DNA of 64,000 nucleotides from an uncultured Spirochaetaceae bacterium (GTDB lineage Bacteria; Spirochaetota; Spirochaetia; SZUA-6; DRHE01). The stretch is from NCBI GenBank assembly GCA_964627715.1, contig CAZVHJ010000018.1, positions 6,955-70,954 on the forward strand. The letters are read 5' to 3'. This document shows, in pieces, positions 20,232-63,489 of this stretch (within the stretch, counting starts at the first letter, position 1; every line of letters starts with the position of its first letter). The position numbers and the translations under genes are program-made. Below the pieces are notes generated by a model, which saw nothing but the letters and a program-made list of their open reading frames with translations, searched no databases and had not been told where the DNA came from.

Positions 20232-20310
20232 CGATTTCTCATCCTCCTAAAACGGTTAGACCTCTCATAAAGAGAGGTCTAACCATTATAATCAATAGTC
20301 CAAGAGGACT

Positions 20311-21768: not shown

Positions 21769-21816
21769 TACTTTTTTCATTTATTCAATTATGTATCCAA
21801 TTTTAATTATATTTTA

Positions 21817-21845
21817 TTGACAGAATGAAAATATCACCCTAATAT
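21817..21845 (+). promoter_or_regulatory. Sigma-70-like promoter for URO-D P3/epimerase
   Basis: TTGACA (21817-21822), 17-nt spacer, TAATAT (21840-21845), about 50 nt upstream of the ATG at 21897. Confidence 0.55.
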
Positions 21846-21896
21846 ACTTAAAAATATTACACTAATTATTTTAACGACGAGGATTTATACGGGGGA

Positions 21897-22928: not shown

Positions 22929-22933
22929 ATCCA

Positions 22934-41309: not shown

Positions 41310-41723
41310 TCAGTAAAGGATCCCGTGAGGTAGAGGGATCCGAAACAGGAGCTCGAAGAACAGCCAGATCACGACCGGCACGGCGACCATGCTGATCGCG
41401 ATCTTGAGGATACTGCGGGAGCCGAACAGGTAGGCGCAGATCCCGACGAAGACCCCACTGGTTACGACAAAACCGAGACGGGGAAAGACAACGGTGTAGA
41501 GGATCAGCAAAACCACGGACAGTCCGACCCGAAACACAACAACCCGGGACAGATCCGGGGGCGCATCGCGCCTGGAGCTGAAAAATCCCTGCACCATCAA
41601 CACCGCACCCATGATCATGATCAAGATCGCCAGCACGGCGGGAAGAACTAGACTAAGGCTTCGTAGCGGCCGGCAGAGTGGAAGATACCTCCACCACTGG
41701 TGTAGAAGCTCTCGTCGAGCCAA
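41310..41723 (-). CDS. tctB: TctB-like small transporter subunit
   Basis: Small hydrophobic protein upstream of tctA. The annotated start overlaps the upstream gene by 76 nt, so the true start or integrity is uncertain. Confidence 0.5.
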   Translation of the reverse strand: MARRELLHQWWRYLPLCRPLRSLSLVLPAVLAILIMIMGAVLMVQGFFSSRRDAPPDLSRVVVFRVGLSVVLLILYTVVFPRLGFVVTSGVFVGICAYLFGSRSILKIAISMVAVPVVIWLFFELLFRIPLPHGILY

Positions 41724-42940
41724 TACATCCCCCCTTTAGGTTCGAGCCAGGAGGCTCCGGCACAGGGGTGATCATGGATCAGGGTTTCCCAGTTTTTGTA
41801 GTTCTGCGCTCCATTGGATTCCAAAATACCGGAGGCAAGTCCGGGGAAAGGGGGTAGATGGGCGGCCACATTTCTGTTCCAGTCCAGCAGCATGGGCACA
41901 CAGGCGGAGTCGGCTACGAAGCTCGGCACTCCCTGTTTGTGGGCCTCTGCTGCCATGAGGATCGACATGCTCAGAGTCTTGCCCGCCGGCTTCAGGGCGA
42001 CCGCCCTATAGCCCAACGCGATCTTCCGGCGCATATCCTCGATGCCGTGGAGGGACTCATCCGCGGCAACCCGGACCGGGAGATCGTGCGCATCGAACTC
42101 ACGGTCATCGGGGAAGGGTTCCTCCAGGAGAACGACCTGATCCAGGGCGCCCATCTTCTCCAGCCCCGATAACAAAGCAAGAAGGGTCTCTTTGTCCTCA
42201 TAGCGCCCGTTGGCATCGAGGTAGTAGGCCAAACGGCCGCTGTCGGTCTGCTCCGTTCGTTTGTCCCGAAGCAGCTTGTGGAGCTGCTCGAGCCGGTCCA
42301 GGTCCTTCTCCAGCATCTGCCGCTGGCTACCCGCCTGACCGATCTTGATCTTCAGCAAGAAGTGTCCCTCCTCGACCAGATCGAGCAGCTCCCCGGAAGG
42401 CAGATTGTAGGTAATCAGGGGAATGCGGGCTACCGCCCTCTGCCTCGCAGGAAATGCGCTGCGAAGCTCTAGTGGGATCAGCTCGGAAAATACTTTGATT
42501 CCCTCAGTCACAGCGCGCAGTTTCCAAAGCGCAAAATCCAGGGAAACTGCGGAATTGAGGGTGAAAGTCAGCCGTAGATCAGCCCGGCAGGTTACCGCCT
42601 GGCCGAACTCGTGTAGCTGGGGAATAAGCTCCTGAACCGCCGCAATGGGATCGGGAAATACTTTTCCTCTGATAAGCTGAACGGCCCGTTCTGCCATGAG
42701 AGCCATGACCAGATTGCCCCCGGTTTCGGAATACGAGGAAAACACAGCAGGATCAGACCAGAGAACCGCGTTACCGCCGATGGCGGTTTGCCGTTTTTCG
42801 CAGGTATCGCCGCTGCCCTCAGCCGGATACAGTGAAGTGATGTTCAACCATTTTTCGTTGAAGGAATCGCCTTTGAAGTGAAAAGGCCTCAAGAATGGCT
42901 CCCGCTGGATCGCAAAACCGTAGCTCTGGAAACGAATCAT
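41648..42940 (-). CDS. Enolase-superfamily enzyme (MLE-subgroup-like racemase/cycloisomerase)
   Basis: LLKIKIG (KxK), YLDANG, LLEEPFP and VAADES metal ligands plus ALKPAGK (second Lys). The ATG at 42940 lies 9 nt downstream of the upstream stop. Confidence 0.7.
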   Translation of the reverse strand: MIRFQSYGFAIQREPFLRPFHFKGDSFNEKWLNITSLYPAEGSGDTCEKRQTAIGGNAVLWSDPAVFSSYSETGGNLVMALMAERAVQLIRGKVFPDPIAAVQELIPQLHEFGQAVTCRADLRLTFTLNSAVSLDFALWKLRAVTEGIKVFSELIPLELRSAFPARQRAVARIPLITYNLPSGELLDLVEEGHFLLKIKIGQAGSQRQMLEKDLDRLEQLHKLLRDKRTEQTDSGRLAYYLDANGRYEDKETLLALLSGLEKMGALDQVVLLEEPFPDDREFDAHDLPVRVAADESLHGIEDMRRKIALGYRAVALKPAGKTLSMSILMAAEAHKQGVPSFVADSACVPMLLDWNRNVAAHLPPFPGLASGILESNGAQNYKNWETLIHDHPCAGASWLEPKGGMYWLDESFYTSGGGIFHSAGRYEALV

Positions 42941-42951
42941 TTCATTTTCTT

Positions 42952-44454
42952 TCAGCCGACCCAAATCGGGCTGGACCAGGCCCACTGGTTGTTGTGCTGG
43001 CGGGCACGGATAAAGTACATATCACCGCCCTCCTGTTTATCCCGGCCTCTGTCCTGCCAGTGGATTTTGGAAGTGTATTCTTCGCCTGAAACCAGACGAT
43101 GAAGCACAAAGCTCTCCGTTGTAAATACTCCTGTAAACTCTACCGCGTTCTCCAGAATCAGATCGGCTACGGGAACCACGAAACGCTTCTTGGCAGGTTG
43201 GGAAAACTCCAGGATGAGTTTAGCCGACGTATCCGCCTCCAGTTCGAGAACCAAGGATTTGGTCGGATCCTCCAAATAGGCCTGCTTGCGGGAAGTGAAG
43301 GATTTCAGGTGCAGATCCATGTCCGAAAGCCGAGCCAGCTGGTCACGAAGATCTTCATCGAAAGGTCCGGATTGGAAGTGCTTTTCCACTCCGACAAACT
43401 TGCCTCCTTCGATACCGATCCTGACATCCCACTGGCAGATTCTCTCCATGGCCAAAGCTGCCCAAGGTCCCCAACCATATTGAAAGCGGCACTTAGCCCG
43501 CCCCGGAAGCTTCAAGGGCGAACTGATCAGATCCCCAGGAAAGAAGCGTTGAATGGTCCTGCCGTTCCGCTCAAGTTCGATCATCTCCAGGGAATCGGCT
43601 CCCTCGACAGAAACCTCGACGCTCCGGTCCGGAGTGTAAGGCAGTTCCATTCCCATAGGTTGACCGTTCAGGGTAACGGCCAGTCCGATTCTGTCTCCCG
43701 TAACCGCTACGGTCCTGCGGGCACGAAGCGCTTCGTTCAGAGAAACGCGCTTTAGATCCTCCGCCCACACGCCGACCAAACCCTCTCCGTAGGCGCCGGG
43801 AAAGCCAAAATGATCGTCTGTGGAGGCCACAAAGCCGAAGCGCAATCCTCTGGCTAATTGATACTCGATCGTCTGGGACACCGAGCGGCCGCTGTTGGAA
43901 TGAAGAATCATCGGGTAAGGAGCTCGATCGGACATGGTACAGCCATGTTCGGAGAATACCTCCACAAGCGGGCTGACCCGAGGATCGAAGTGCTGCCAGT
44001 TGTATCCCCTCCACCCGAGCTTATAGCCCACATGATGGGGAATCGCCAGAGCGCCTTTGTTCCTGGCGAATTCGAGCAGCTTGTCTGCGGAATCGGGAAG
44101 AAACAGATCCGGTTGATCCTCCGGAAAAATCAGACAGTAGTCTCCAAAAGCACTGGAGTGCCACTCGTAACCGAGGAAGGCGACAAAACCGTCGCCGTTA
44201 GCTTCTCGAATCAGTTTTCGCGTCTTCGGCCAGTGCTTCGTATGAGCTTCGAAGCCCTTTACCCAGTGCATGTGCCGTTCTCCCGGCATGATCGGCATAT
44301 CGTGCCAGGAGGCATGTCCGGTAAAGGCAAAGAAATCCAGATGCTCCTGGGCAACCTCGATGGACCGTTCAAGGGAACCCTTAGCGTATCCCACGGCGTT
44401 GTGATTGTGAAGATCCCCCCAGAAGAGCTTGTACTTCTTGTTTAGCAGAAACAT
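42952..44454 (-). CDS. His-rich metallohydrolase-like protein (PHP/DUF3604-like N-domain + beta-rich C-domain)
   Basis: WGDLHNHN, FTGHASWH, GYEWHS, IPHHVG, FSEHG and STDDH motifs occur in the order expected for a PHP-type trinuclear site. The family name is from memory only. Confidence 0.5.
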   Translation of the reverse strand: MFLLNKKYKLFWGDLHNHNAVGYAKGSLERSIEVAQEHLDFFAFTGHASWHDMPIMPGERHMHWVKGFEAHTKHWPKTRKLIREANGDGFVAFLGYEWHSSAFGDYCLIFPEDQPDLFLPDSADKLLEFARNKGALAIPHHVGYKLGWRGYNWQHFDPRVSPLVEVFSEHGCTMSDRAPYPMILHSNSGRSVSQTIEYQLARGLRFGFVASTDDHFGFPGAYGEGLVGVWAEDLKRVSLNEALRARRTVAVTGDRIGLAVTLNGQPMGMELPYTPDRSVEVSVEGADSLEMIELERNGRTIQRFFPGDLISSPLKLPGRAKCRFQYGWGPWAALAMERICQWDVRIGIEGGKFVGVEKHFQSGPFDEDLRDQLARLSDMDLHLKSFTSRKQAYLEDPTKSLVLELEADTSAKLILEFSQPAKKRFVVPVADLILENAVEFTGVFTTESFVLHRLVSGEEYTSKIHWQDRGRDKQEGGDMYFIRARQHNNQWAWSSPIWVG

Positions 44455-50515: not shown

Positions 50516-51235
50516 ATGTTCGGCCCGTTCATCTTTCCTGAAGCGGTCAGCAACAATTTGCTGATCAGACTTTTAGTCGCTTGTCTCCTTGGCGCTGTAA
50601 TAGGTTTCGAGCGAGATATCCACGGCCGCGCCGCAGGTTTGCGCACGAACATGCTGGTCAGCATGGGGGCTGCCCTGTTCATGCTGATCTCCGTGGCTGT
50701 GGCGGAAAGCTTCTCCGGTGGCCCCGAAAGCACCGGCCTGCGAGTAGATCCTAGCCGTATCGCTGCTCAGATCATCACCGGTATCGGCTTTCTCGGTGCC
50801 GGGGCAATCATCAAAGAGGGGTTCAATATTCGAGGTCTGACTACCGCAGCCTGCCTCTGGGTGTCTGCCGGAGTCGGCATGGCTGCCGGAGCGGGTTTTT
50901 TCGAAATGGCCATCGTCGTGACCCTGATTGGCCTGTTTACCCTTGTGGTTGTGAACAGATTTGAGAAGGTGTACGCCAAGGACTCCTACCGAACACTGGA
51001 AATCACCGCGGCAAATGACGCTGATATCTCCGGGTTGATTGAAGTGGTCAAACGGAAACACCTGAAGATTCTGTTCTTGGATTTCAGCAGAGACTATAAG
51101 ATGAATCGAATAGTCATCACCTTTACGATTCGCCTCTTCCATAAAGGGGTAACCGACAAGCTCGCCCATGGGATCGTAAAAGATCTGGAGAACTCCGGGT
51201 ACCCGATTCACAAACTCAAATGGGGACACGAATGA
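50516..51235 (+). CDS. MgtC/SapB-family membrane protein
   Basis: LLGAVIGFERDIHGRAAGLRTNMLVSMGAALFM signature and a C-terminal ACT-like soluble domain. Confidence 0.85.
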   Translation: MFGPFIFPEAVSNNLLIRLLVACLLGAVIGFERDIHGRAAGLRTNMLVSMGAALFMLISVAVAESFSGGPESTGLRVDPSRIAAQIITGIGFLGAGAIIKEGFNIRGLTTAACLWVSAGVGMAAGAGFFEMAIVVTLIGLFTLVVVNRFEKVYAKDSYRTLEITAANDADISGLIEVVKRKHLKILFLDFSRDYKMNRIVITFTIRLFHKGVTDKLAHGIVKDLENSGYPIHKLKWGHE

Positions 51236-51555
51236 AAACAATAAAAAACAAGATCCTGATACATCGGGATTTGCTGAATCGGGATTGCCAGGCTGGCATT
51301 GGCAATACGGAAGGCCAGCTGCAGTTTCGCTATGCCGTACATATTGGTTATTACCAAAATGGCGGAACCAAACACAAACAGGGCAATCACCGGCAGAGTC
51401 AGATTCCCCCTGAAGATTCGTAGTACCGCTCCCATGAAGGGCCCCACCTAGAAATTGGAAAGAACATAGAACAGGCCGGCTAAGCGCGAGGACAGACCCG
51501 CGGTAGCGTTCTGACCGCCGCTGACAGATCGCCAGAGTCACGCCCCAACTGTACA

Positions 51556-52068
51556 TCAGCCCCAACTCTCGTAGTGCACAAGTTCTACAGTGGGTTTGCG
51601 CTTTTTCTCTCCCGGCCGATCGCTGGGATACCCCAGGGGTGTGAAGACAATCGGCTCGACTGATTCGGGCAGCTTCAAGATCTGCCGGGCCGCTTGAGCG
51701 TCAAAGGCCCCGATCCAGCAGCTTCCCAAGCCCTGATCGGTCGCTGCCAGGATCAGATGGTCCATGACAATCGCAGCATCTATATCGCAGAAGCGCTTTC
51801 CGTCGGTCCGCACCCAACATCTGTCGGTAAGGCCGCACAGGGCGATTACAATAGGGGGTTGGACGAACCAATCCCTTCCGTAGATTCGCTTCAGCTCCTC
51901 CTCCCGGCCATCGGTATGTATGACCAGGATCCTGAAAGGTTGGCGATTAGCTGCGGTTGGAGCCAGACGAGCGGCTTCGAGTACTTTTGCCAATACCGGA
52001 TCCGGGACCGGATCACGCTTATACGCACGGACGCTGTATCGCGCCTGAATCAGCTCTTGAAATTCCAT
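51556..52068 (-). CDS. Nitroreductase-family FMN oxidoreductase
   Basis: RYSVRAY...LEAARLAPTAANRQPFR signature; 170 aa. Confidence 0.8.
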   Translation of the reverse strand: MEFQELIQARYSVRAYKRDPVPDPVLAKVLEAARLAPTAANRQPFRILVIHTDGREEELKRIYGRDWFVQPPIVIALCGLTDRCWVRTDGKRFCDIDAAIVMDHLILAATDQGLGSCWIGAFDAQAARQILKLPESVEPIVFTPLGYPSDRPGEKKRKPTVELVHYESWG

Positions 52069-52158: not shown

Positions 52159-53961
52159 CTATCCGTACAGCGGCCCGAAATTCGTACAGGCCCGGTAATC
52201 CGCACCTTCTGAATCCATGCCGAAGGCCGCCCAGGCGCTGGGACGATAGATCGTCTCCACGTTGTGCATACACACAGGAATACGCAGCATCGAAGCCAGA
52301 GTGATCAGCTCTGCCCCGATATGTCCGTAGCTGAAGGCTCCGTGGTTTGCCCCCCAATTGGCCATCACCGAGTAGACATCGGCGAAGGGTTCTTTGCCGG
52401 TGAGCCTGGGCACGAACCAGGTAGTCGGCCAGGTCGGATTGGTACGGACATCCAGAGCATCGTGGACCTTGGCGGGAAGCTCGGCAGTATGACCTTCGGC
52501 AATCTGTAAAACCGGTCCCAAGCCTCGTACCAGGTTGATCCGGGACATGGTTATGGGCATACCCCCCTGGGTCAGGAAGTCGGTGGAGTAACCGCCTCCG
52601 CGGAAGTACCCCAGATCGGCGGGCCGCCATTCTGTGACCTCGAGGCATTTCTTCACCTCTTCGGGGGTGATCTCCCAGAAGGGCTTGATCACGGGTTTCC
52701 CATCCCGGCTCATTTGTCCGGTTCCGTCCAGGGCGGCGGGTCCTGAATTGATCAGATGGATGATTCCTCCTTCGGCCAATCCTTTGGGAGCAACTCCGGT
52801 GACTCGTTTGATCGCCTCGGCGCTCCAGTAGGTACGCACATCGGCAAAAATCTGGGCGGTGCCCGTAAGCAGATATCCGAACAGCATGGACACGCCGTTG
52901 AGACTGTCATTCTCCGTGGCCAGGATGTGGGGCTCCCGAATGCCGTTCCAGTCGAAAGAGGAGTTCAGAATCGCCTCCATGAAATCCCCGTTGGGAAAGT
53001 GATCCGTCCACTGGCGCTGTCCCTGAAAACCCGCTGCCAGGGCGTTGTGACCGAGCGCCTCTTCGCCGAATCCCAACTCGGCGAGGCGGGGATTGCCCAC
53101 CATCAGGTCCCGGGCGATCAGAGTCATCTGGACTACCCTCTCCCAATCTTTCGACTTTTGGTCGCGGGAGCGCTGCTTATCCGGCGGGTTGTCGTCCCTA
53201 CCCTCCTTACAATTGTCCTTGACCCAGGCCATGGCCCGCTGGAATTCCTCTCTGTCGTAGATCTCCTCTTCGAAACGGCGCACGAACTCGCTCATATCGA
53301 CATATTCATTACGCATGCCGAGATAACTTTGGAAGAAATCTTCCTGAACGATCGACCCGGCGATTCCCATGGACACCGAACCGAGAGACAGGTAGCTCTT
53401 CCCCCTCATGGTCGCAACAGCCAGACCGGCTCGCACAAAGCGAAGGATCCTCTCCCGGACGTCTTCGGGAACAGATGTGTCCCCCGAATCCTGGACATCC
53501 CGGCCGTAAATACCAAAGGCAGGCAATCCCTTCTGGTTATGGGCCGCGAGCACTGCAGCCAGGTAGACCGCACCGGGCCGCTCCGTGCCATTGAACCCCC
53601 ACACCGCCTTGGGCATCAGAGGATCCATATCCATGGTTTCGGAGCCGTAGCACCAGCAGGGAGTGACGGTCAGGGATACACCCACTCCTTCCCGGGCGAA
53701 CTTCTCATGTGCCATGGCCGCTTCCGCTACCCCGCCGATGCAGGAATCGGCGATCACGCATTCCACCGGAAGGCCGTTGGCCTGGCGCAGACTCTCCGTG
53801 ATGATCCGGGCTGCCGTCTTAGCCATTACCATGGTCTGGTTTTCCAGACTTTCCCGCACACCTCCAAGCCGGCCGTCGATGGCAGGGCGGATACCGACTT
53901 TCGGCATGCTTCCCTTCAATCGGTTCTGGGGCGGATTCATCTTCAAATGTTCCGTTGCCAT
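52159..53961 (-). CDS. fucI: L-fucose isomerase
   Basis: Collinear with E. coli FucI as I recall it ([47 protein letters not shown]). GGAGGA RBS 4 nt before the ATG at 53961. Confidence 0.9.
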
Positions 53962-54016
53962 ATCATCCTCCAAATATCGTTTTTCAAGCAAATTGCGTTC
54001 TCAGCCGCTGTATCCC

Positions 54017-55135
54017 TCAAGAATAGACGCACTCCCGGGCTGCCTCGGCGTAGGCCTGGATGTTTGCCACCGGGGTTTCGAAGAAGTGGTCGGTGCAGGA
54101 GAGTATGTAGCCGCCATCGTACCCCACCTTCTCAAACAGTGTGTGCACCTGATTGCGGATCGTATCGTGAGTTCCCCGGGTCAGGACGTTGAACTGATCC
54201 ATGCCCCCAATCAAAGCCAGCCGGTTGCCGATTTTCTCTTTGTAGTCCCAGGGCTCCTGGTTGCCGCCGATCGAGGGGGCGGCCAGGGTCTCGGAGGCGT
54301 CGCAGCCGTTGGCCACGATATGCTCCTCGATGCCAAAAGTTCCCCCGCAGGTGTGATAGGTGACCTTGAAACCGAGGCTGTGGAGGGCGTCGTGCATCTT
54401 GCGATCGTAGGGCAGGCAGAACTCCTCGTGCAGCCCGGGCGAAATCAGAGTAGAGGAGGCAGAACCGCCTCCGGTCTCTACCAGATCGAACTTGGCGCCT
54501 TTCATGCTTTCGATGAACTCAAGCTTCTTGTTCAGAAGGATCTGAAGCAGCTGGTGCACCCAGTCAGGATAATCCGTAGCTTTGAGGATCAGCTCGGTGA
54601 TGTCCATCAGGCAGGCGGCGTGCTGCCAGCAGCCGGCCTGATCTCCCCAGACAAATCCGCGGACGATGCCGGTATCCGCTACCCTGGTGTAAAACTCATC
54701 CAAGGGCTTCAGATCCAGCGTGGGTACGGGCATATACTTGCGGATCAGCTCGAGATCCTCCTCCTTCTTGATCAGATACTCTGTGATCCAGGTGGTCTTT
54801 CGGTCCCCCCCGGTCTTGTAGGTCAACACGCCTTCCGGGGTGGTGATTGTATGGTGGTTGATGCGGTTGTCCGGATCGTCGGAGATCACCGCCACCTCGT
54901 CCCGCCACTCCGGCGTGGAAGCCTTAGTGTAATCGGCATCCACCAGCCAGAACTGACCCATGTCTTCGAAGTATTGGATCTGCCCGTCCATCCCGAACTT
55001 TTGGAATGCCTCGACATCGCTGATTCCGTCGAGATACTCGTCGAGATGGTAACCCTGCCACTGATGCACGGAAACCGGCAGCCGATCCGGCTTTTCTTTA
55101 TTTAGGGCACACATCAAGCGTTCTTTGGATGTCAC
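54017..55135 (-). CDS. URO-D-fold protein, paralog P4
   Basis: AGGAGGA 5 nt before the in-frame GTG at 55135, giving N-terminus (M)TSKERLMCALNKEKPDRLP like the other paralogs. YHTCGG (H-x-C-G) and a later LSCTDH Cys. Confidence 0.75.
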   Translation of the reverse strand: MTSKERLMCALNKEKPDRLPVSVHQWQGYHLDEYLDGISDVEAFQKFGMDGQIQYFEDMGQFWLVDADYTKASTPEWRDEVAVISDDPDNRINHHTITTPEGVLTYKTGGDRKTTWITEYLIKKEEDLELIRKYMPVPTLDLKPLDEFYTRVADTGIVRGFVWGDQAGCWQHAACLMDITELILKATDYPDWVHQLLQILLNKKLEFIESMKGAKFDLVETGGGSASSTLISPGLHEEFCLPYDRKMHDALHSLGFKVTYHTCGGTFGIEEHIVANGCDASETLAAPSIGGNQEPWDYKEKIGNRLALIGGMDQFNVLTRGTHDTIRNQVHTLFEKVGYDGGYILSCTDHFFETPVANIQAYAEAARECVYS

Positions 55136-55145
55136 TTCAATCCTC

Positions 55146-56012
55146 CTATCCCTTAACCGCTCCAAGGGTCAAGCCACGCAGCAACTGCCGTTGCACAATG
55201 ATCACAAAGATAATCGCCGGAATGAGCATCAGCACTGACATTGCGCACATACCCCGCCAATCCGAGACGAACTCACCGGTAAAGTCGAACAGACCCACCG
55301 GAAAGGTTTTCGAGGCGGTGGTCCTGCTGACCACACTGGCAATCGCAAACTCGTTCCAAGAGGTGAGGAAGGCGAATATGCCGCTGGCCGCCAACCCCGG
55401 TCCCACCAGGGGAAGCTCAACCCGGAGAAAGGCCGTCCACTTGGAACAGCCGTCGATCAGAGCCGCATCGTTGAGGCTCTCCGGGATCTCCCCGATGAAC
55501 CCGGCCATCAACCAAGCGGTAAACGGCACGTTCAGGGAGGCGTGGGCTAGAACCAATCCAAGGGATGTGTCGGCCAATCCCATCCGGGTAAATAAAAAGA
55601 ACAGAGGCAGGCTCAGCGCAATCCCCGGTATCGCCCTGGCCAGCATCAAGGAGAGAAAGATGCCATTCCTTCCTTTGAATTTAAAGCTGGAAAAGGCGTA
55701 GGCCGCCAGAGTGCCGATGACCAGGGCCAGGGCGGTGCTAAAGACTGCGGTAATCAGAGAGTTGCGCAGGTAGGCGCCGAAGGGGACATTCTCGCCAAAG
55801 GCGAATCGTTCCGGATTGACCCCAAAACCTAAAAGCGCCAAGTAGGAGTCGAAGTTGAAGTTCCTCGAGATCCATACCGGAGGACGGGTGTTGATCTCAA
55901 TGTTAGGGCGCAGCGAGGTAGAAATCAGCCAGAGTACAGGTACGAAGAACAGGCCGAGTACGATTCCAGTCGTGATTTTCGAAGAAATGTAACGATGGTG
56001 TTTCATGCTCAT
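55146..56012 (-). CDS. Carbohydrate ABC transporter permease (MalG-like)
   Basis: 288 aa, 6 TM segments, EAA loop (LNDAALIDGCSKWTAFLRVELP). Start overlaps the upstream stop. Confidence 0.85.
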   Translation of the reverse strand: MSMKHHRYISSKITTGIVLGLFFVPVLWLISTSLRPNIEINTRPPVWISRNFNFDSYLALLGFGVNPERFAFGENVPFGAYLRNSLITAVFSTALALVIGTLAAYAFSSFKFKGRNGIFLSLMLARAIPGIALSLPLFFLFTRMGLADTSLGLVLAHASLNVPFTAWLMAGFIGEIPESLNDAALIDGCSKWTAFLRVELPLVGPGLAASGIFAFLTSWNEFAIASVVSRTTASKTFPVGLFDFTGEFVSDWRGMCAMSVLMLIPAIIFVIIVQRQLLRGLTLGAVKG

Positions 56013-56944
56013 ACGCCCCTCACTCTCCGCGTCTTGATGAGCTGCTTGAAAAAATAGAAGGTAAAGGCAATCGCAATCAGTACTGTGATGTAGCTCATCG
56101 CGCTACCGATGGCGAAGTTCTGGCTGGTAAAAGCCAAGCGGTATACATAGGTCCAGATCAGCTCAGTACGGTGGGCCGGACCGCCTCCTGTCATGATGCT
56201 GACCAGGTCGTAGGCTCGGGCTACATCCAAAGAGCGGACCGCCAGAGCGATGTAGATGAATGGTGCGACCGAAGGCACGGTCACGTGAATGAACTTCTGC
56301 CACTCCGTGGTTCCGTCCACCTCCGCCGCATCGATGATGTCGGGGGAAATCGACAGGATTCCAGCCAGGAAAATGATCACCATAAAAGGAGTACTCATCC
56401 ATATTTCGGCGACCAGTATTGTGATAAAACCGAGGGGTTTTTGGATGAGCCAGGGGATGATCATCGGCTCCTGAAAGATCTCGAACAGGATATTGTTCAC
56501 CAGGCCGACCTGATCGTTGAAGATCCACTTGAACTGAAATCCAACCAGGATCGGTGCAAACATCATCGGCATCATCAGGATGGTCCGCAGGATACCCTGC
56601 CCCCGCACCACGTGACTCATCGCGTTGGCGATAAAGAGTCCCAACACCAGTTCCACGTTTACCGTGATCATGATGTACAGCACCGTTCGTCCCAAAGCGG
56701 GTAAAAACACGGAATCCTGAAACAGCAGAACGTAGTTACGAAAACCTACGAATTTTGGAGCGGACTGGCTGACCAGGGTGAAATTGGTGAAGCTCAAGTA
56801 CAGGGAGTAGATCATCGGAAAGGCGATGACGAATATGATGAGCGCCGCTGCCGGAAGCAAGAGGAAAACCGGCAGGCGCCTCTCCTCCAGCATCACGGAG
56901 GAGTGCTTTTGTTTTTCTTTGTTCTGTTTCTCTTTGGCAACCAT
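56009..56944 (-). CDS. Carbohydrate ABC transporter permease (MalF-like)
   Basis: 311 aa with EAA loop (IIDAAEVDGTTEWQKFIHVTVP). GGAGAG RBS. Confidence 0.85.
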   Translation of the reverse strand: MVAKEKQNKEKQKHSSVMLEERRLPVFLLLPAAALIIFVIAFPMIYSLYLSFTNFTLVSQSAPKFVGFRNYVLLFQDSVFLPALGRTVLYIMITVNVELVLGLFIANAMSHVVRGQGILRTILMMPMMFAPILVGFQFKWIFNDQVGLVNNILFEIFQEPMIIPWLIQKPLGFITILVAEIWMSTPFMVIIFLAGILSISPDIIDAAEVDGTTEWQKFIHVTVPSVAPFIYIALAVRSLDVARAYDLVSIMTGGGPAHRTELIWTYVYRLAFTSQNFAIGSAMSYITVLIAIAFTFYFFKQLIKTRRVRGV

Positions 56945-57040
56945 GGAGCTCTCCGGTTTTAGGATGATTCTCGTAAACGAACAAGATCAGGTATCGGACG
57001 ATTTTTAATATCGCCCGATACCTTTTACGTACTACAAAAC

Positions 57041-58330
57041 TTAGTAGTAGCCTCTTTCCTTCATCATCGCTTCCACTTTGGTCGCCGCTTCATTCAGACC
57101 TGCCTTGGGGTCTTTGTCTCCCAGGATGATGGCCTGAACGATCGGATATACTATGTCGGAGGCGGGTAACCATTCCGCCACCAGGGGCGGGGTGCGGAAG
57201 TCATTGGCGGCCTGAAACTGAGCCAACTCAAGGCGTTTGGTATCCAGCTGGTTGCCGGCCGCTTTGGCGTCGGCGATAATCTTGTCCCACACCGAGTTGC
57301 GGGTGACCAAAAAGCCCAGGTTGGCCTCGGTCATCTGGCTGTCGGCACTGGTGATGAACTTGATGAAGTCCGCCGCCGTCTCTTTCTGCTGACTGGCTTT
57401 GGTGATGGAGAAGCTGTGTTGTCCAGCCCAGCCGCCGTGAATACCGGCATTCCCCCTAGGCTGGCGGGCGATGTCGAACAATCCGGCGGCCTTCGAGGCT
57501 GAAGGATCTTGGAAGTAGCTGTACCAGCCGTACCACTCGGTGTACATCACTATATTGCCGGCTACCCAGTTCTTGGCCACGTCCTCCCACACGAAGCTGG
57601 TCATGCCGGGCGGCATGGCACCGGCCTTATACAGATCCTGGAACATGGTAGCGGCCTTTACTCCACCGGGAGCATTGAAACCGGGCTTCCAGTTCTTGTC
57701 GAAGAACTCGGCGCCTTCGCAGGTCGATACCTCGTAGAACCGACCGGTCAGAGCTTCCTCTTTTCCAGCGAACTCCGTAGCATACACTCCAGCTGGCAGG
57801 TTCGGCTGCACTTTCAGAGCAGTGGCCTTGAACTCGTCCCAGGTTTCCGGAACTGTCAGGCCAAAATCCTGGAACAAATCGGTGCGGTAGTGCAGGCAGC
57901 TGATGTCGAAATGCCGCGGGATGATCCACAGCTTACCGTCCCGCTTGCCCGAATTGAGGATCATGGGGATGAAATCCTTCAAATCGTCCGTGCTGAAATA
58001 ATCATCCAGGGGTACAATCCCGTCTGCCTTGATATACTGGGTGAAGAAACTGGAGTGGTCCCAGCACACATCGTAGTCCACGGATCCGGCAGCGAAATCC
58101 GTCTTCAACTTCTTGTCGATCTGGAAGCCGTCTCCCTTGTAGACGATCTCTACTTTCATGCCCGTCTTGGCTTCCCACTTGGGGATCTCCTTGTAGAGCT
58201 CTTCATAATTCGCGCCGCCGATAAAGGCGCACTTCAGAACTGAGGGCGCCGCCGCTTCCTGTTTTCCGCCTGCAAAGGCAAAGCCGGCAACAAGCAGCAG
58301 AGCCAATGTGAGTGTTGGGAGTTTTTTCAC
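57041..58330 (-). CDS. Carbohydrate ABC transporter substrate-binding protein (family 1)
   Basis: AAGGAG 6 nt before the GTG at 58330. Signal peptide (M)KKLPTLTLALLLVAGFAFA|GGK. Confidence 0.85.
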   Translation of the reverse strand: MKKLPTLTLALLLVAGFAFAGGKQEAAAPSVLKCAFIGGANYEELYKEIPKWEAKTGMKVEIVYKGDGFQIDKKLKTDFAAGSVDYDVCWDHSSFFTQYIKADGIVPLDDYFSTDDLKDFIPMILNSGKRDGKLWIIPRHFDISCLHYRTDLFQDFGLTVPETWDEFKATALKVQPNLPAGVYATEFAGKEEALTGRFYEVSTCEGAEFFDKNWKPGFNAPGGVKAATMFQDLYKAGAMPPGMTSFVWEDVAKNWVAGNIVMYTEWYGWYSYFQDPSASKAAGLFDIARQPRGNAGIHGGWAGQHSFSITKASQQKETAADFIKFITSADSQMTEANLGFLVTRNSVWDKIIADAKAAGNQLDTKRLELAQFQAANDFRTPPLVAEWLPASDIVYPIVQAIILGDKDPKAGLNEAATKVEAMMKERGYY

Positions 58331-58448
58331 ACTTTTCTCCTTAAAATTTTTTTTCGTGGAAGCAGATGAGGCACAGGCGATCATCCGTTTCCCGTTGTAC
58401 CCACAATTTGTACCTTCATCACCTCCTCTCATTACAAACAACCGGCCC

Positions 58449-59507
58449 CTACCTGTAGGTACCGTACTCGGCGATGGTATCGAACATGGTCAAGACGTTC
58501 TCCAGGGGCGTTTCCTCCAGAATGGTATCGTGGCTAGCACCAGCCACGAAACCGCCACCCGGCTTCATGATGTCGATGACCTCTCTCGTCTTTTTACGGA
58601 CCAGCTCTGGAGTGCCCTTGATCAGGACATGGTGGGAGTCGATACATCCGTTGAACAGGATCCTGGCCCCGAACTCAGCCTTGAGGGAAACCAGATCCAT
58701 ACCCACACAGGAGGACTGGACCGCATGCAGTCCGTCCAATCCGGCTTCGATCATCGCCGGGATCAACGGTGCGAACCCGCCACAGCAGTGGAGCATCACT
58801 TTCAGATTATACTGATGACCCAGATCGATCAGCCGCTTCAAGTGGGGAAGGAGGAACCGTCGGAACAGCTCTTCTCCTACTAACGGCCCCATCTGACTAC
58901 CGAAATCATTGCCGATGAAGAAAATGTCGATCGCCTCTGCCGCGGCCTCAAAGGTTCTTCGGCTTACTTCGAAATAGAAATCAACGATACGAGTAAGCAA
59001 TGTATCGACAAAGTGAGAGTCGTCGTACAACTTGTAGTAGAAATTCTCCATCCCCACCAGATCGATGGCATCATGCCAGTAGGGAGCCCACTCACCGCCC
59101 AGGATTGCATACTTCCCCTCGTACAGCAGCGCATCATCCATCATGTGGGAAATACTGATCCAGTCGGGATCCGGCCAGGCGTATTCCTCGAGCTCCCGCA
59201 GAGTAGCTTCGGCCAGGGGATGGGAGCGGGGCTGACCATAGCCGATCCCGCTGCGCTCGATACCGAAGGGGGTGCGGTAGATCGAACCCTCGCTGAGATG
59301 CTCCACCGGGCTGTAAGCTTCCGGTCCGGCATATCGGGAGAAGACCCTGCGGAAATCATCGTGGAATCGAATTCGCAGAGCCTCATCGTCAAGCCCGAGT
59401 TCAAGCTTGGCCTTGTCCCAGAACTCCTGCGATGCGCCACACCAGGTGGGAACTCGATCGGGCTCCTCGTGGGCAAAAGCCGCCTTAACTCTTTCCCGCG
59501 AGGTCAT
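58449..59507 (-). CDS. URO-D-fold protein, paralog P5
   Basis: MTSRERVKAAFAHEEPDRVP N-terminus. LHCCGG (H-x-C-G). C-terminal PGGGFVAGASHD, with His where P1/P3/P4 have Cys. Confidence 0.75.
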   Translation of the reverse strand: MTSRERVKAAFAHEEPDRVPTWCGASQEFWDKAKLELGLDDEALRIRFHDDFRRVFSRYAGPEAYSPVEHLSEGSIYRTPFGIERSGIGYGQPRSHPLAEATLRELEEYAWPDPDWISISHMMDDALLYEGKYAILGGEWAPYWHDAIDLVGMENFYYKLYDDSHFVDTLLTRIVDFYFEVSRRTFEAAAEAIDIFFIGNDFGSQMGPLVGEELFRRFLLPHLKRLIDLGHQYNLKVMLHCCGGFAPLIPAMIEAGLDGLHAVQSSCVGMDLVSLKAEFGARILFNGCIDSHHVLIKGTPELVRKKTREVIDIMKPGGGFVAGASHDTILEETPLENVLTMFDTIAEYGTYR

Positions 59508-60550
59508 GCAATACCCCCATCCTTTTCTCGAACGGTCGATTCCCTGACGACAAGTTGGCAGGGGACCTTTGTACTGATTTTGGGGATCTTCTTTTTTTCG
59601 ATGAGCTTCATCAACAGCCTGTACGTTTGTTCGGCGAGCAGGCTTGTGGGCTGTTGTACAGAGGTAATGGGCACCCGCAGGTATTTGGTATAACGCTCAT
59701 CTCCGTAGCCGGCGACCAGGATATCTCGAGGAACCTTGATATCCTGCTCCCATAGAGCTACGAGAACGCCCAGTGCGATCTCGTCGTTTACACCCATAAC
59801 CGCCTCTACGCCCTGCAGCGCTCCATCTGCAATAAGCCGCCGGGCAATCTTGTAACCATCTTCCTGAAAGAATCCGCTCTCGAGAAACAGACGCTCATCT
59901 ACAGGAATCTTGTGTTCGCGGAACGCCTTCCAATAGCCGGCGATACGTTCGATAGTGACGCTGGTTTCTTTGTCCCCGCAGAGAAAGAGAATTTTACGGG
60001 CACCCTGCTCGATCAGGTGATTGACCAGGAGGTAACTGCCCTGCACGTCATCGCTGGTTACCGAATAAAAAGGCTTGTCGATAAAGTAACGATCGAGAAG
60101 GATCAGCGGGATGTTGCGGCTGCGGATGTCCTCGAGAAGCCCCAGGTTGTGCTGCCCCTTAGCCGGGGCTACGACAATTCCATTAACCCTCCGGGAGAGG
60201 ATCATTTCAATGGCTTTACGTTCCGGTTCCGGGTCCTCGTAGCTGTGGGCCAACAGGATGTCGTAGCCGGCTTCATCTAGCCTCCGACTCAGGTGATAGC
60301 AGATCTCATTAAAGAAGATCTGCATGATGTCCGGGATCAGCAGTCCGATGACCCGGCTGTCCTTCTGTACCAAATGACGGGCTAGAAAGTTTGGTCGGTA
60401 ATTTAGTTCCTTGGCTAAAGCGAGGATCTGTTGCTTGGTTTCCTCGCTAATATGGATTCCCTCATCTGCCTTGCCGTTGAGAACCCGAGACACCGTGGCT
60501 ATGCTCTTGTTGGCACGCTTGGCAATATCTGCCAGGGTCGCGTAGGGCAT
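59504..60550 (-). CDS. LacI-family transcriptional regulator
   Basis: ATLADIAKRANKSIATVSRVLNGK HTH plus a periplasmic-binding-protein-like core. Its start and stop codons overlap the flanking URO-D genes. Confidence 0.9.
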   Translation of the reverse strand: MPYATLADIAKRANKSIATVSRVLNGKADEGIHISEETKQQILALAKELNYRPNFLARHLVQKDSRVIGLLIPDIMQIFFNEICYHLSRRLDEAGYDILLAHSYEDPEPERKAIEMILSRRVNGIVVAPAKGQHNLGLLEDIRSRNIPLILLDRYFIDKPFYSVTSDDVQGSYLLVNHLIEQGARKILFLCGDKETSVTIERIAGYWKAFREHKIPVDERLFLESGFFQEDGYKIARRLIADGALQGVEAVMGVNDEIALGVLVALWEQDIKVPRDILVAGYGDERYTKYLRVPITSVQQPTSLLAEQTYRLLMKLIEKKKIPKISTKVPCQLVVRESTVREKDGGIA

Positions 60551-61776
60551 TAGACTACCGCCTCGAACATGGCAACGATATTCTCCGGGGGCACCTCCGG
60601 GAGGATGTTGTGAACCGTGTTGAAGACGAACCCACCGCCCGGAGTAAAGATCTCCAGCCGCCGCTTCACCTGTTCCTTCACTTCCCGGGGCGTGGCCCGA
60701 TTCAGAACATGACGGGTATCGACTCCACCCCCCCAGAACGTCAGATCTTTGCCGAACTCAGCCTTCAGTTTGGCCGGTTCCATATTTCTCGCATTGGTCT
60801 GTACAGGATTAATGATCTCAAAACCTGCTTCGATCAGGTGCGGGAGCAGCTCGTAAATCGATCCACAGGTATGGAGGAAGGTGTGCATTCGACTGTGCTT
60901 TTTTACGAAGTCGCACAATTTGGCGTGCCGGGATTTGAACAGCTTCTCATAGATCTCCGGCGGCATGAAAGGTCCCTGATCCATTCCCAGGTCATCCCCG
61001 AAGCGGGCGATGTCCACCAGATCCCCAACGGCGGTGCAGACCTTTTCCAGAAAGGAGAGATGCTGCTCCATTAGCGCATCGAGCAGCCGTTCCACGTTAT
61101 ACTGATCCGCTACTAGGTCCATCAGGAAGTTGTCCAATCTCCTCAAGAAACTCCCCCATTCGAAGAGATTGCACCCAACCACGATCATCAACGCCTGATC
61201 CATCGAATCTTTGAGCTGCAGAGTGCGGTTGCGAAGGGTCTTCCAAAAATCCGGTTCTGAAGCGTGATCCCAGGGACTGTGAACCAGGGCTGCCCAGAGG
61301 ATCTTGCCCATCTCCTCGGAAAGATTCTCGAAGGAGTCAGGATAGCCGTTGAGATAGGGGAAATAGGTCTGATCGAAGAATGTACCCTTGGACGGCATCT
61401 TCGCAATCACCTGCCCGCCGACCGAGGCTTCCCAGCTTCCGTCGGACTGCAGGACAGGTTGAAACCAGGACGGATACTGAGCTTTGCTACCGTCGGCCAA
61501 CTCAACGTCGTACCAGTCCGAATCCGCAGTGTTGAAGGTGCGACCGATATCCACAACATCGATTCCGAAGCGCTCCAGGATAAAATCCTCCGGCTGGGCG
61601 AGCTGCTGCACCACGTCGTACACCCGAGTGTGACCGCGGGTCTCACCCAGGTGAGCCTTCAGTCGACCATAGGCAATAGCCGAAATGCCGGAGCTTGGAG
61701 TGGAACCCAGATCCACCGGTACTCTATCCGGTTCCCTGTGGTCAATAGCGGCAAGAATCCGTTCCCGCGAAGTCAT
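60550..61776 (-). CDS. URO-D-fold protein, paralog P6
   Basis: AGGAGA 6 nt before the ATG at 61776. MTSRERILAAIDHREPDRVP, LHTCGS, and C-terminal PGGGFVFNTVHN. Confidence 0.75.
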   Translation of the reverse strand: MTSRERILAAIDHREPDRVPVDLGSTPSSGISAIAYGRLKAHLGETRGHTRVYDVVQQLAQPEDFILERFGIDVVDIGRTFNTADSDWYDVELADGSKAQYPSWFQPVLQSDGSWEASVGGQVIAKMPSKGTFFDQTYFPYLNGYPDSFENLSEEMGKILWAALVHSPWDHASEPDFWKTLRNRTLQLKDSMDQALMIVVGCNLFEWGSFLRRLDNFLMDLVADQYNVERLLDALMEQHLSFLEKVCTAVGDLVDIARFGDDLGMDQGPFMPPEIYEKLFKSRHAKLCDFVKKHSRMHTFLHTCGSIYELLPHLIEAGFEIINPVQTNARNMEPAKLKAEFGKDLTFWGGGVDTRHVLNRATPREVKEQVKRRLEIFTPGGGFVFNTVHNILPEVPPENIVAMFEAVV

Positions 61777-61797
61777 CCCCAATCTCCTGTTCGACCC

Positions 61798-62967
61798 TCA
61801 AACCAGTTCCGGAATGTCGTATTCGCCGAGATTCAGCGGGTATTTGCCGTACTCCCTCACCAGCTTGACCACATAATCGTAGTTCTTTCCGGATACGTTG
61901 CTGGGAACCGAATGATCGGACTGGAAGATAAAGCCTCCCCCCTTGGCGGCGTTCAGTTTCCTCAGAACCATCTTTTTCAACTCCTCCTCGCTCGCCTCAG
62001 CCCAGACCTGGACGTCCATGTTGCCGCAGAATCCGATTCTATGGCCGTAGGTTCGGCGAAGCTCTACCACGTCCAGTCCCGCTTTCGCCTCCAAGGGATT
62101 GTAGGCATCCACACCGATCTCTATGAAATCCTCGAATATCCGACTGACATTTCCGCAACCGTGATAAATCACCGGCAGCCCGCTTTCATGGCAGACGTCG
62201 ACAATCGCCTTCACACCGGGTTTGAAATGCTTGCGCCAATACTCGGGGGAGAACAGCATATCGTTTCTGTAGGCTACATCCCCCCAAATCACAATTCCGT
62301 CAAGCAATCCATCAGCTGCCTGGATCTGGGCCTTGGTAAGCTCGAGATTGAACTCGTTGACTCGTTGGACGAAAGCGGCCAGCTCTTCAGGATACAGACC
62401 GATCCAGAGCATGACATTTTCACTTCCGATGATCCGCCATAACTCCTCGTGGCCTTCACAAACCGAGCCGTACACGGGGAAATTAGGGTGAAGAGCTTTC
62501 ACCGTGTCGATCCAGGCCGGAAGGTCCCGGGCAAAGCCGTCTCCAACACCGGCCAGTTGGTTGTCCCCGCCCTTCAGGTACCGCCGATCGTCCCAGGGGT
62601 GGTCGAACTCGAAAGCCCGCATCTTCTCGATCGTATCCGTTTCGAACTTGAGAAAACGGGGCATGGGATCGGCGAACTTCTTCTGAATCACCGCCTCAAA
62701 CCCTGTGCGAACAACCACCTCCTCCTCGTTCTCGCTGATAATCTCGAAGCTCTTGATGTGGGGATCCATGTTGGGAATGGTTACGATCCAGTCCAGGTCG
62801 TAGTAAGTATAGATGTCGGTATCCGCCGGCAATCCCAGCTCCTCCTGCCAGCGCTTGATGAAGCTACCCCAGAAAAAATCGCTGATAGGAACCCGGTCCG
62901 CCTCTTCATGCTGGAGGGTTTTGGTCATCCGCTCTAGTTTCTCCCGGCATTTCTGCGTTCGTTCCAT
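61798..62967 (-). CDS. URO-D-fold protein, paralog P7
   Basis: GAGGGGGG RBS before the ATG at 62967. HEEADRVP, YHGCGN, and C-terminal KGGGFIFQSDHS. Confidence 0.75.
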   Translation of the reverse strand: MERTQKCREKLERMTKTLQHEEADRVPISDFFWGSFIKRWQEELGLPADTDIYTYYDLDWIVTIPNMDPHIKSFEIISENEEEVVVRTGFEAVIQKKFADPMPRFLKFETDTIEKMRAFEFDHPWDDRRYLKGGDNQLAGVGDGFARDLPAWIDTVKALHPNFPVYGSVCEGHEELWRIIGSENVMLWIGLYPEELAAFVQRVNEFNLELTKAQIQAADGLLDGIVIWGDVAYRNDMLFSPEYWRKHFKPGVKAIVDVCHESGLPVIYHGCGNVSRIFEDFIEIGVDAYNPLEAKAGLDVVELRRTYGHRIGFCGNMDVQVWAEASEEELKKMVLRKLNAAKGGGFIFQSDHSVPSNVSGKNYDYVVKLVREYGKYPLNLGEYDIPELV

Positions 62968-63006
62968 GAATCCCCCCTCGATCAGTCGAATAATCAAACC
63001 TTATAC

Positions 63007-63051
63007 GTTAAACGCTTAACATAATTCTAACCAATTCTGCCTGGTTGTCAA
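63007..63051 (-). promoter_or_regulatory. Sigma-70-like promoter with overlapping LacI-type palindromic operator
   Basis: Minus strand: TTGACA (63051-63046), 16-nt spacer, TAGAAT (63029-63024). Three nt downstream lies the 14-bp palindrome GTTAAGCGTTTAAC (63020-63007; 12 of 14 positions symmetric, central CG). Confidence 0.55.
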
Positions 63052-63105
63052 GTTTTTTTCTAACCCCAACCGCCGGTTAAGTTCCGGTATCTTTTTGCTG
63101 ATTCC

Positions 63106-63429
63106 CTAATCGGTGTGGAAAACCTCTTCCATCTCAGCCCACCACTCGCCCTCGGTCCTTGTCTCCAGAGGCTCCTGCATGGGCATCATGATATCCCACC
63201 ATTCCTGGGTTTTCGGATCTGCCGCCATCTTCACCATATCCGCAGCAAAATCCGTACCGACATACTCAAAGTAGGCGAACAGATAGCCACCCTTGTGAAA
63301 GATCGAGTAGTTGCGAATGTTGCACTTCCGAATCATCTCGAGTATTTCCGGCCAGACTTCCGCGTGGTACCTCTTGTACTCCTCCAACTTCTCCGCTTTC
63401 ACCCGGATGAGTTGTCCGTGTCTCTTCAT
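63106..63429 (-). CDS. rhaM: L-rhamnose mutarotase
   Basis: About 107 aa with MKRHGQLIRVKAEKLEEYKRYHAEVWPE...NYSIF...LFAYFEY...WW, characteristic of RhaM/YiiL. Confidence 0.85.
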   Translation of the reverse strand: MKRHGQLIRVKAEKLEEYKRYHAEVWPEILEMIRKCNIRNYSIFHKGGYLFAYFEYVGTDFAADMVKMAADPKTQEWWDIMMPMQEPLETRTEGEWWAEMEEVFHTD

Positions 63430-63489
63430 AGTCAATTCTCCTCTCTCAAACTAAATACCTTCAACCTCACGACGCCCTGTCGAGACAGG

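Follow-up and report, generated by a model that had tools for sequence, protein, structure and literature searches.

Four uroporphyrinogen decarboxylase-fold paralogs in a predicted L-fucose operon of an uncultured spirochaete as candidate corrinoid-linked methyltransferases

Why should a sugar operon contain four genes of the uroporphyrinogen decarboxylase (URO-D) family? The question is raised by a 64,000-nucleotide stretch of DNA from an uncultured Spirochaetaceae bacterium (assembly GCA_964627715.1, contig CAZVHJ010000018.1, positions 6,955 to 70,954), the whole of which we refer to as the window. The four genes, designated P4, P5, P6, and P7, lie among genes for a mutarotase, a LacI-family repressor, a sugar ATP-binding cassette (ABC) importer, and an L-fucose isomerase (FucI), and the original prediction, made from the sequence alone, was that their products could strip methyl or other alkyl groups from modified deoxyhexoses. 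We find that the P4 and P7 orthogroups belong to fucose catabolism, for which the evidence is solid, and that in a few genomes they are also associated with corrinoid machinery. Based on these comparisons our preferred reading, held tentatively and with slightly less than even confidence, is that this is a LacI-controlled operon for decorated L-fucose, in which P4-P7 would be substrate-specific, corrinoid-linked methyltransferases whose action makes the sugar available to the mutarotase and FucI.

The open reading frame (ORF) map of the 50–64 kb region contains an unbroken run of minus-strand genes, with an operon span of 51.5–63.4 kb. Ten genes had been described on this strand, and the map together with Pfam and NCBIfam profiles bears out all of them and their order. 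In the direction of transcription they code for a RhaM-family mutarotase (63106–63435, with a probable ATG at 63429), P7 (61798–62997, with a probable true start at 62967 giving 389 amino acids (aa), as in its homologs), P6 (60550–61782), a LacI-family repressor with a LacI helix-turn-helix (HTH) and Peripla_BP_3/1 domains (59504–60550), P5 (58449–59507), a CUT1 substrate-binding protein (SBP; 57041–58441), two ABC permeases with a BPD_transp_1 domain each (56009–56944 and 55146–56012), P4 (54017–55165, with a probable true start at 55132 giving 371 aa, again as in homologs), and FucI (52159–53991). All four P genes are URO-D/MtaA-like and match PF01208. The gene overlaps that had been reported, of 1 nucleotide (nt) at 60550 and of 4 nt at 59504–59507 and at 56009–56012 (between the two permease genes), agree with the ORF coordinates, and there is indeed no fuculokinase, aldolase, or glycoside hydrolase among the annotated ORFs of the window.

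The predicted functions point to an L-fucose-type sugar. FucI passes the cut-offs of two NCBIfam equivalogs (NF008220, 1094.1 against 775; TIGR01089, 1070.8 against 850) and contains the Fucose_iso_N1, N2, and C domains, such that its identity as an L-fucose isomerase is upheld. The label of rhamnose mutarotase given to the first gene product does not survive: although it matches the Pfam rhaM profile with 121.6 bits, it scores 48.9 with the YiiL equivalog TIGR02625, whose cut-off of 99.6 is not reached, and the closest solved structures are those of an L-fucose mutarotase, 7BYU and 7BYW (for 7BYU, E 5e-34, 119.8 bits, and by our own count 56 identities in 106 aligned residues), whereas E. coli YiiL is matched with an E value of 4e-6. 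By sequence it is FucM-like and not YiiL-like; FucM serves as mutarotase in the non-phosphorylating route of fucose breakdown (PMC11199699). The other two sensing components are less informative, with the SBP (SBP_bac_1, 122 bits) having closest solved relatives that bind trehalose/maltose, sorbitol, or sulfoquinovosyl-glycerol and so pointing to no ligand, and the LacI protein having as its top NCBIfam match RbsR at 239 bits, under the cut-off of 382, with no effector indicated. The SBP and both permeases of the importer are encoded in the operon and, as had been stated, no ABC ATPase gene is present among the annotated ORFs of the window; shared MsiK-type ATPases are common. The FucI equivalog and the FucM-like mutarotase are held in common with E. 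coli fucPIKUR and the non-phosphorylating FucM pathway respectively, but FucK, FucA, and FucU are absent from the window, an ABC importer stands in place of FucP, and there are four extra URO-D genes. Overall, the proposal of a LacI-type controlled operon for uptake and catabolism of an L-fucose-type 6-deoxyhexose is supported.

A promoter and operator had been placed between the mutarotase and P7 genes, and candidates for both are located there. A sigma-70-type promoter (TTGACA-16-TAGAAT, 63051–63024, minus strand) matches at 11 of 12 positions and is the best match in the 51.4–64 kb interval, and directly downstream of its -10 box is an imperfect palindrome, TGTTAAGCGTTTAACG (63021–63006, minus strand). 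This palindrome is the sole match in the window at up to three mismatches, with at least one match arising in 12 of 100 shuffles, and the promoter and palindrome are base-for-base invariant in four related loci (L094–L097; L-numbers denote the related loci compared), including L097, in which the flanks are divergent. The palindrome is presumably bound by the LacI protein, and we refer to it as a putative operator. A strong, 14-bp terminator-like stem-loop (56989–57023, minus strand) is positioned between the SBP gene and the first permease gene, and could serve as an intra-operon attenuator or stabilizer.

The four URO-D paralogs score well above the PF01208 gathering threshold of 23.9 (P4 85.9, P5 94.6, P6 78.0, and P7 77.0 bits), with coverage restricted to the C-terminal two thirds or less (from profile positions ~94–161 to ~345), and their best NCBIfam matches are to MtaA/CmuA-type methyltransferases, above those to HemE. 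A true HemE identity is ruled out by the scores with TIGR01464 (P5 21.3, P6 28.4, P7 24.3, and none for P4, against a cut-off of 302.95). Pairwise identities are 20–33% among P4-P7 and two further URO-D proteins encoded at a second sugar locus (locus A, see below) and this, together with the separate conservation of the P4 and P7 orthogroups, rules out a recent local duplication of one gene. Judged by sequence, the paralogs are old orthogroups and not a local expansion, with P4 and P7, the two that were searched, constituting separate conserved orthogroups. The presence of four in one sugar operon had been considered highly atypical, but a multi-URO-D arrangement proves to be typical for such loci; the count of four holds for the operon, whereas the window as a whole carries seven, the other three being at 15054–16070, 16123–17241, and 21897–22928. 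Where relatives of P4 or P7 are named in their sources they are called 'uroporphyrinogen decarboxylase' or 'hypothetical protein'. An exact-sequence look-up of the window P4 gave no record, and no P4 or P7 homolog was found in the plasmid collection.

Sequence searches of the PDB gave no match for P4 or P7, a very weak match to a HemE for P6, and for P5 a single weak match, to MtaA (4ay7, E 2e-6). An AlphaFold (AF2) model of P7 (pLDDT 82.5, pTM 0.85), in which the low-confidence stretches are in a beta-rich insertion at residues ~60–150, was used to search the PDB with Foldseek and is about equally similar to UROD and MtaA (TM 0.56–0.68, E ~1e-11 to 1e-12), with nothing nearer than these two and MetE next. 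When aligned to 4ay7, the H-x-C zinc motif is kept in all of the paralogs, as HTC, HCC, HTC, and HGC in P4, P5, P6, and P7 respectively, and an N-terminal DRVP motif is common to the paralogs and the MtaA family. H269, C271, and H352 (P7 numbering) are near-invariant over the P7 family and all paralogs, and H260 and E281 are near-invariant in the P4 clade.

To what process are these families attached in other genomes? In a scan that took a single genome for each species, 460 species genomes encoded a P4 relative, and the best 80, whose loci (70–92% identity) provide the P4 neighborhood counts that follow, span at least 12 phyla. Spirochaetota, Atribacterota, Bacteroidota, Acidobacteriota, Planctomycetota, and Nitrospirota are among the sources, as are Hydrogenedentota, Chloroflexota, Calditrichota, Omnitrophota, Aminicenantes, and Ignavibacteria. 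The nearest relatives are in metagenome-assembled genomes (MAGs) of Spirochaetales and Spirochaetaceae, and the host of the window is very likely an anaerobic spirochaete, which its NrdD and Hdr/Mvh/MetFV genes fit. There are 3922 P4 homologs at E<=1e-10, the best 120 of which have identities of 72% or more and, with few exceptions, a length of 371 aa; a tight clade of 83 clusters (at the 50%-cluster level) is recovered at E<=1e-30, with the next full-length relatives at 51–44% identity. The P7 family is similarly large, with 5755 homologs at E<=1e-10, and the top 120 are 75–94% identical and mostly 389 aa long. P7 neighborhood counts were taken from 80 metagenome loci with 67–89% identity.

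Fucose genes recur around both. A fucose marker gene (GH29, FucI, FucU, or mutarotase) is present within 10 kb in 32 of the 80 P4 loci and 51 of the 80 P7 loci, and the URO-D orthogroups are therefore linked to L-fucose-type sugars across phyla. The linkage of URO-D and fucose genes expected from the original prediction is thus conserved, recurring with mutarotase, fucosidase, and FucI, although FucI itself is linked in relatively few loci, mostly spirochaetal. Counting orthologs of window genes at 50% identity or more, the mutarotase is near P4 in 21 of 80 loci, P7 in 17, P5 in 11 (61–76% identity), FucI in five (spirochaetes only), and P6 in three (L006, L058, and L080; 69–74% identity). De novo clustering of P4 neighbors recovers GH29 alpha-L-fucosidases (14–15 of 80), sulfatases (13), glycerate kinases (11), ABC ATPases (10), nitroreductases (10), Gate-domain proteins (9), GntP permeases (7), GH106-like proteins (6), and FucU (3), and one Bacteroidota locus also has LarA, MFS, and GFO/IDH/MocA genes. 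In the P7 loci, a mutarotase gene is 0–400 nt from P7 in 42 of 80, usually within ~30 nt, and other neighbors include GFO/IDH/MocA dehydrogenases (17), a RhaT-family symporter directly upstream (7–9), GH29 (8), and GH38 (8).

The arrangements differ in their complexity. Locus L006 is fully syntenic with the window, and two close relatives (L004 and L026) have the order SIR2-P4-FucI-FucU...NrdD, with a URO-D gene following P4 in L004, such that the window locus is an expanded form of a P4-FucI-FucU core. A minimal LacI-FucI-mutarotase-P7 operon is present in a Spirochaetes MAG (L178). In Planctomycetota (L033, L047, L055, L059, and L062; ~10000–14200) there is a P4-mutarotase-P7-mutarotase-P5 array, with a mutarotase copy ahead of each of two URO-D genes, and in all but L055, whose contig ends before that point, a CUT2 monosaccharide ABC system lies 3' of the array. 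Annotated contigs L089–L092 have an FGGY kinase-LacI-PfkB-FucI-SBP-permeases-mutarotase-P7-P4 array beside a microcompartment (BMC) cluster, which is presumably for fucose or rhamnose use, and a similar array is present in L179.

The dominance of GH29 fucosidases and sulfatases among the P4 neighbors raises the possibility that the URO-D proteins remove or rearrange some other decoration on fucose derived from sulfated or decorated fucans, such as an acyl group, the anomeric methyl group of a methyl fucoside, or some further alkyl substituent, in which case the methyl-ether reading would be wrong in its details. Action at O1 would give a single anomer, and this would explain a dedicated mutarotase. 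However, we know of no such chemistry for the URO-D fold, nor of methyl fucosides as abundant natural substrates, and the corrinoid components described next indicate a one-carbon (methyl) unit; we consider this explanation very unlikely.

We scanned 160 loci (80 P4 and 80 P7, 10 kb around) for corrinoid genes, counting them by tblastn, as longest-ORF gene calling hid real genes. Corrinoid machinery is beside a P4 or P7 ortholog in about six of 165 loci, in same-strand arrays. Only one of the 80 P4 loci contains a corrinoid gene by tblastn, that of a Solibacteraceae MAG (L012), which has the order URO-D, corrinoid protein, P4 ortholog (77% identity), GH29, GH29. At the P7 loci the orders are DUF1638, RACo activase, P7, corrinoid protein (L148); RACo, an unrelated gene, P7, corrinoid protein, MtaB, URO-D (L136); GH29, URO-D, GH38, corrinoid protein, MtaB (PF12176, 537 bits), P7, with a mutarotase gene within 27 nt of P7 (L147); MtaB, P7, with MtaB as the only such component (L150); and a LacI-URO-D fusion, URO-D, URO-D, mutarotase, P7, a creatininase-family protein, SBP, two permeases, and a 211-aa corrinoid protein with B12-binding_2 and B12-binding domains (L093). 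All four corrinoid-protein genes in the 160 loci are within 2.1 kb of the query gene, for which random placement in the flanks gives P ~0.007. The corrinoid-linked P7 genes belong to three sub-lineages and their nearest relatives (81–85% identity) are ordinary mutarotase- or RhaT-linked P7 genes, so the association is scattered through the P7 orthogroup and is not a property of one divergent branch.

Two features of these loci are recorded here as separate observations. The fusion in L093 (5062–7287) is a single 741-aa ORF in which a LacI-family regulator, with its HTH and periplasmic-binding fold, is joined to a URO-D domain. Corrinoid protein-MtaB pairs are present on two metagenome contigs, at 8001–10017 of L177 and 7983–9999 of L147; the L177 pair adjoins a GntR regulator and a GH43-like gene. 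The closest named homologs of the corrinoid protein are in MAGs of Bryobacterales (Acidobacteriota).

The arrays in L147 and L150 can be read in another way, as P7 is at the mtaA position of a corrinoid protein-MtaB-MtaA set, and MtaA, the closest characterized relative, is a methyltransferase II (MT II) that methylates a zinc-bound thiol. P4-P7 might then be methyltransferases in a different role, either with MT II-like unloading of a methyl-corrinoid onto a thiol or other acceptor, or with MetE-like transfer from a small donor to a zinc-activated thiol without a corrinoid protein. The near-invariant Glu of P4 is ~20 residues after H-x-C, a spacing that we take to match the zinc sites of MetE and MtaA, and MetE structures are the next-best fold matches of the P7 model. 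Set against this, a single sugar operon has no obvious need of four different MT II enzymes; MT II of the acetogen type is a pterin-binding protein, and the window already encodes one of these; at most P7 loci there is no MtaB or other methyltransferase I (MT I) for P7 to serve; and the conserved context is the catabolism of fucose, rather than the metabolism of thiols or methionine. A role of this kind, whether MT II-like or MetE-like, is in our view quite unlikely.

Returning to sugar demethylation, the suggestion of methyl transfer is partly substantiated, in that a corrinoid protein, RACo, and/or MtaB are beside P4 or P7 orthologs in six loci, but not in the window or near most of the other genes. 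Unlinked carrier genes have a precedent: substrate specificity lies with MT I, and the corrinoid protein and MT II may be shared partners whose genes are at other sites (PMC13391211). The family membership of P4-P7, the near-invariant H-x-C together with a His at the third-ligand position, and the fucose linkage also count in its favor. In the proposed scheme, the CUT1 system would import an L-fucose-derived compound using an ATPase encoded elsewhere, and P4-P7, as distinct lineages, would each have a substrate or position specificity of their own. Each would act as an MT I, taking an O-methyl group from the sugar and passing it to a corrinoid protein that is in its Co(I) state and whose gene is at another genomic site, with the His-x-Cys...His metal site polarizing the ether oxygen. 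The FucM-like mutarotase would then equilibrate the anomers of the demethylated L-fucose, FucI would convert L-fucose to L-fuculose, and a shared MT II would discharge the methyl-corrinoid, possibly to tetrahydrofolate (THF). We infer that methyl transfer takes place, which way it runs, which metal and substrate are involved, and where the methyl group goes, and the choice of O-methyl-fucose or O-methyl-rhamnose as the substrate is conjectural.

Several observations weigh against this proposal. No corrinoid protein, activase, or MT II was found within 10 kb of P4 or P7 at ~96% of the loci, the window encodes no methyl-carrying corrinoid protein, and neither the window nor nine related loci gave a cobalamin riboswitch. 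The corrinoid-protein homologs form a large family, and two other contexts inspected (corrinoid protein-DUF1638 and GntR-corrinoid protein-MtaB) are without a URO-D gene; the carrier is therefore not dedicated to URO-D loci. Scores with the MtaA/CmuA model TIGR01463 (P4 83.1, P5 71.8, P6 43.1, and P7 43.0) are far short of the cut-off of 235.4, and the distal third zinc ligand of MtaA is changed from Cys to His in P4-P7, as in HemE. The P4 family is present in often-aerobic lineages (Solibacteraceae, Pirellulales, and Nitrospirales MAGs), and a simple demethylase model would not predict the tight pairing with a mutarotase, which in Planctomycetota is duplicated for each URO-D gene. An alkoxide is also a much poorer leaving group than a phenolate, and in the literature searched we found neither a corrinoid enzyme acting on a carbohydrate methyl ether nor URO-D genes in sugar loci.

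Alternatively, the paralogs might be independent of corrinoids and catalyze some other reaction on one mutarotase-supplied anomer of a free 6-deoxyhexose, as a metal-dependent isomerase or epimerase feeding rare deoxyhexoses to FucI, as an analog of fuconolactonase, or as a decarboxylase. The mutarotase is the strongest conserved partner, which fits an anomer-specific enzyme, and the GFO/IDH/MocA dehydrogenases near P7, the absence of corrinoid genes from most loci scanned, the often-aerobic hosts, and the HemE-like third-ligand His all lean in the same direction. But such enzymes leave unexplained the RACo-P7-corrinoid protein, corrinoid protein-MtaB-P7, and URO-D-corrinoid protein-P4 arrays in several sub-lineages, the HemE model scores are under the cut-off, and an isomerase would be redundant with the FucI that is already there. 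To our knowledge, there is also no precedent for chemistry of this kind in the URO-D fold, and we regard a corrinoid-independent role as unlikely.

Comparison with characterized enzymes clarifies how far the preferred assignment, as corrinoid-linked methyltransferases, departs from what is known. The three-component corrinoid O-demethylases likewise have a UroD-like TIM-barrel catalytic subunit, with many substrate-specific paralogs per genome (PMC13222342, PMC13391211, PMC8630106). UroD-like barrels among the O-demethylase and chloromethane MT I enzymes include MtoB, MtvB, OdmB, VdmB, CmuA, and CdmB, some with zinc and some without, and the URO-D-fold enzymes named in that account are, UroD itself aside, all corrinoid methyltransferases (PMC13222342). 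These systems act on substrates such as aryl methyl ethers and chloromethane, whereas the context of P4-P7 is carbohydrate, implying aliphatic ethers. A corrinoid protein and RACo adjoin P4 or P7 orthologs in some loci, with none adjacent in the large majority noted above. With MtaA, MtbA, and CmuA (4ay7), P4-P7 have in common the H-x-C and DRVP motifs and the fold (TM ~0.6–0.68 for the P7 model), but differ in their scores (43–83 bits against 235), in the Cys-to-His ligand change, and in a 60–100-residue beta-rich insertion in the N-terminal half, and there is no coenzyme M context in these bacteria. A metal site in P4-P7 is plausible, but it is not the canonical one of MtaA. HemE has the same fold, provides equal-best Foldseek matches, and has a His at the GHG-equivalent position, although its context is haem synthesis whereas that of P4-P7 is sugar catabolism; the H-x-C motif present in P4-P7 is presumably absent from HemE. 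The only sugar demethylation route found in the literature searched is an O2-dependent P450. The P450 6-O-methyl-galactose demethylase of marine Bacteroidota has the same role as that proposed here, removing an O-methyl group that blocks catabolism (PMC6292453, PMC10033563), but it is O2-dependent, releases formaldehyde, and is unrelated in its fold and cofactors.

Other genes in the window bear on the fate of the methyl group. A methyl-branch module on the plus strand (325–16070) begins with a pterin-binding methyl-THF:corrinoid methyltransferase, two HdrA-like proteins, MetV, and MetF, followed by a 1491-aa HdrA/NfnB-like fusion, MvhD, the small and large subunits of a NiFe hydrogenase, a maturation protease, and finally an MtaA/CmuA-like URO-D protein (15054–16070), which is full-length and in which the zinc ligands of MtaA are all retained (both residues of H-x-C as well as the distal Cys). 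We count the pterin-binding methyltransferase and the full MtaA-like protein in favor of the methyltransferase reading. A one-carbon (C1) hand-off to this MetFV/folate system at 0.3–15 kb had also been proposed, and for this we find no backing from conservation, as none of the 160 loci has a pterin-binding methyltransferase close to P4 or P7 and none of the 80 P4 loci has a MetF close to P4; since these neighbors are not conserved, the hand-off rests on proximity in one genome. Immediately following is locus A (16123–24142), a second sugar ABC locus with two URO-D paralogs, an SBP and two permeases, an AGE-family 2-epimerase, and a regulator of ROK/NagC-like type; the first paralog (A1) has lost H-x-C, and the second (A2), by alignment with the 15054–16070 protein, retains H-x-C...C. 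The only B12-binding protein of the window (27791–28771, minus strand) was considered as a methyl carrier and rejected: its B12-binding_2 and B12-binding domains are joined to an XRE-type HTH and it contains an EFHDIG (ExHxxG) motif, suggesting a CarH-like, B12-dependent regulator.

The remaining genes are more loosely connected to the operon. A nitroreductase-family protein (PF00881, 97.6 bits) is encoded 90 nt downstream of FucI (51556–52068, minus strand) and, judging from this position, is possibly the last operon gene. A nitroreductase gene is also directly 3' of FucI in the syntenic loci L094 and L095. The window protein is of a different subfamily from the one recurring near P4 in 10 other loci, and we therefore do not lean on a link to P4 loci. 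Beyond it, an MgtC-family gene (50516–51235, plus strand) is a real gene, conserved in L004 and L026, and a 330-aa minus-strand ORF that overlaps it (50573–51565) has no family match. Further away (41648–44454, minus strand), a gene for an enolase-superfamily (MR_MLE_C) protein overlaps the start of one for a 500-aa protein with a faint DUF3604 match; these could be a sugar-acid dehydratase pair, which by position is unrelated to the fucose operon.

What the four paralogs are doing in this operon is thus answered by degrees. A function as oxygen-independent sugar demethylases is attractive, and the genomic support for it is real but thin. In its most extended form the proposal is that P4-P7 are widespread O2-independent, corrinoid-dependent carbohydrate O-demethylases, the first to use Co(I) for the cleavage of aliphatic (sugar) methyl ethers, that they are position- or sugar-specific for methylated L-fucose-type deoxyhexoses, and that in some Acidobacteriota they are coupled to a reverse MtaB for a net hydrolysis of the ether to methanol; taken as a whole, we find this somewhat unlikely. 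That P4-P7 represent a new substrate class for corrinoid methyltransferases is plausible.

Methylated sugars, among them 2-O-methyl-fucose, 3-O-methyl-rhamnose, and 6-O-methyl-galactose, are found in pectin and in the glycans of algae, mosses, and bacteria, and their methyl groups block the usual catabolic routes. The gap that these candidates address is the handling of such sugars by anaerobes and by the communities of sediments, peat, and the gut. With thousands of metagenomic homologs in a dozen phyla, the P4 and P7 families are here connected with the catabolism of fucose and, in a small number of genomes, with corrinoid machinery, giving them a testable function. If the function is confirmed, carbohydrates would join aryl ethers, amines, and methanol as substrates of corrinoid methyltransferases, the breakdown of glycans would be connected to the cycling of C1 units and methanol, and a large block of genes would lose a wrong annotation.

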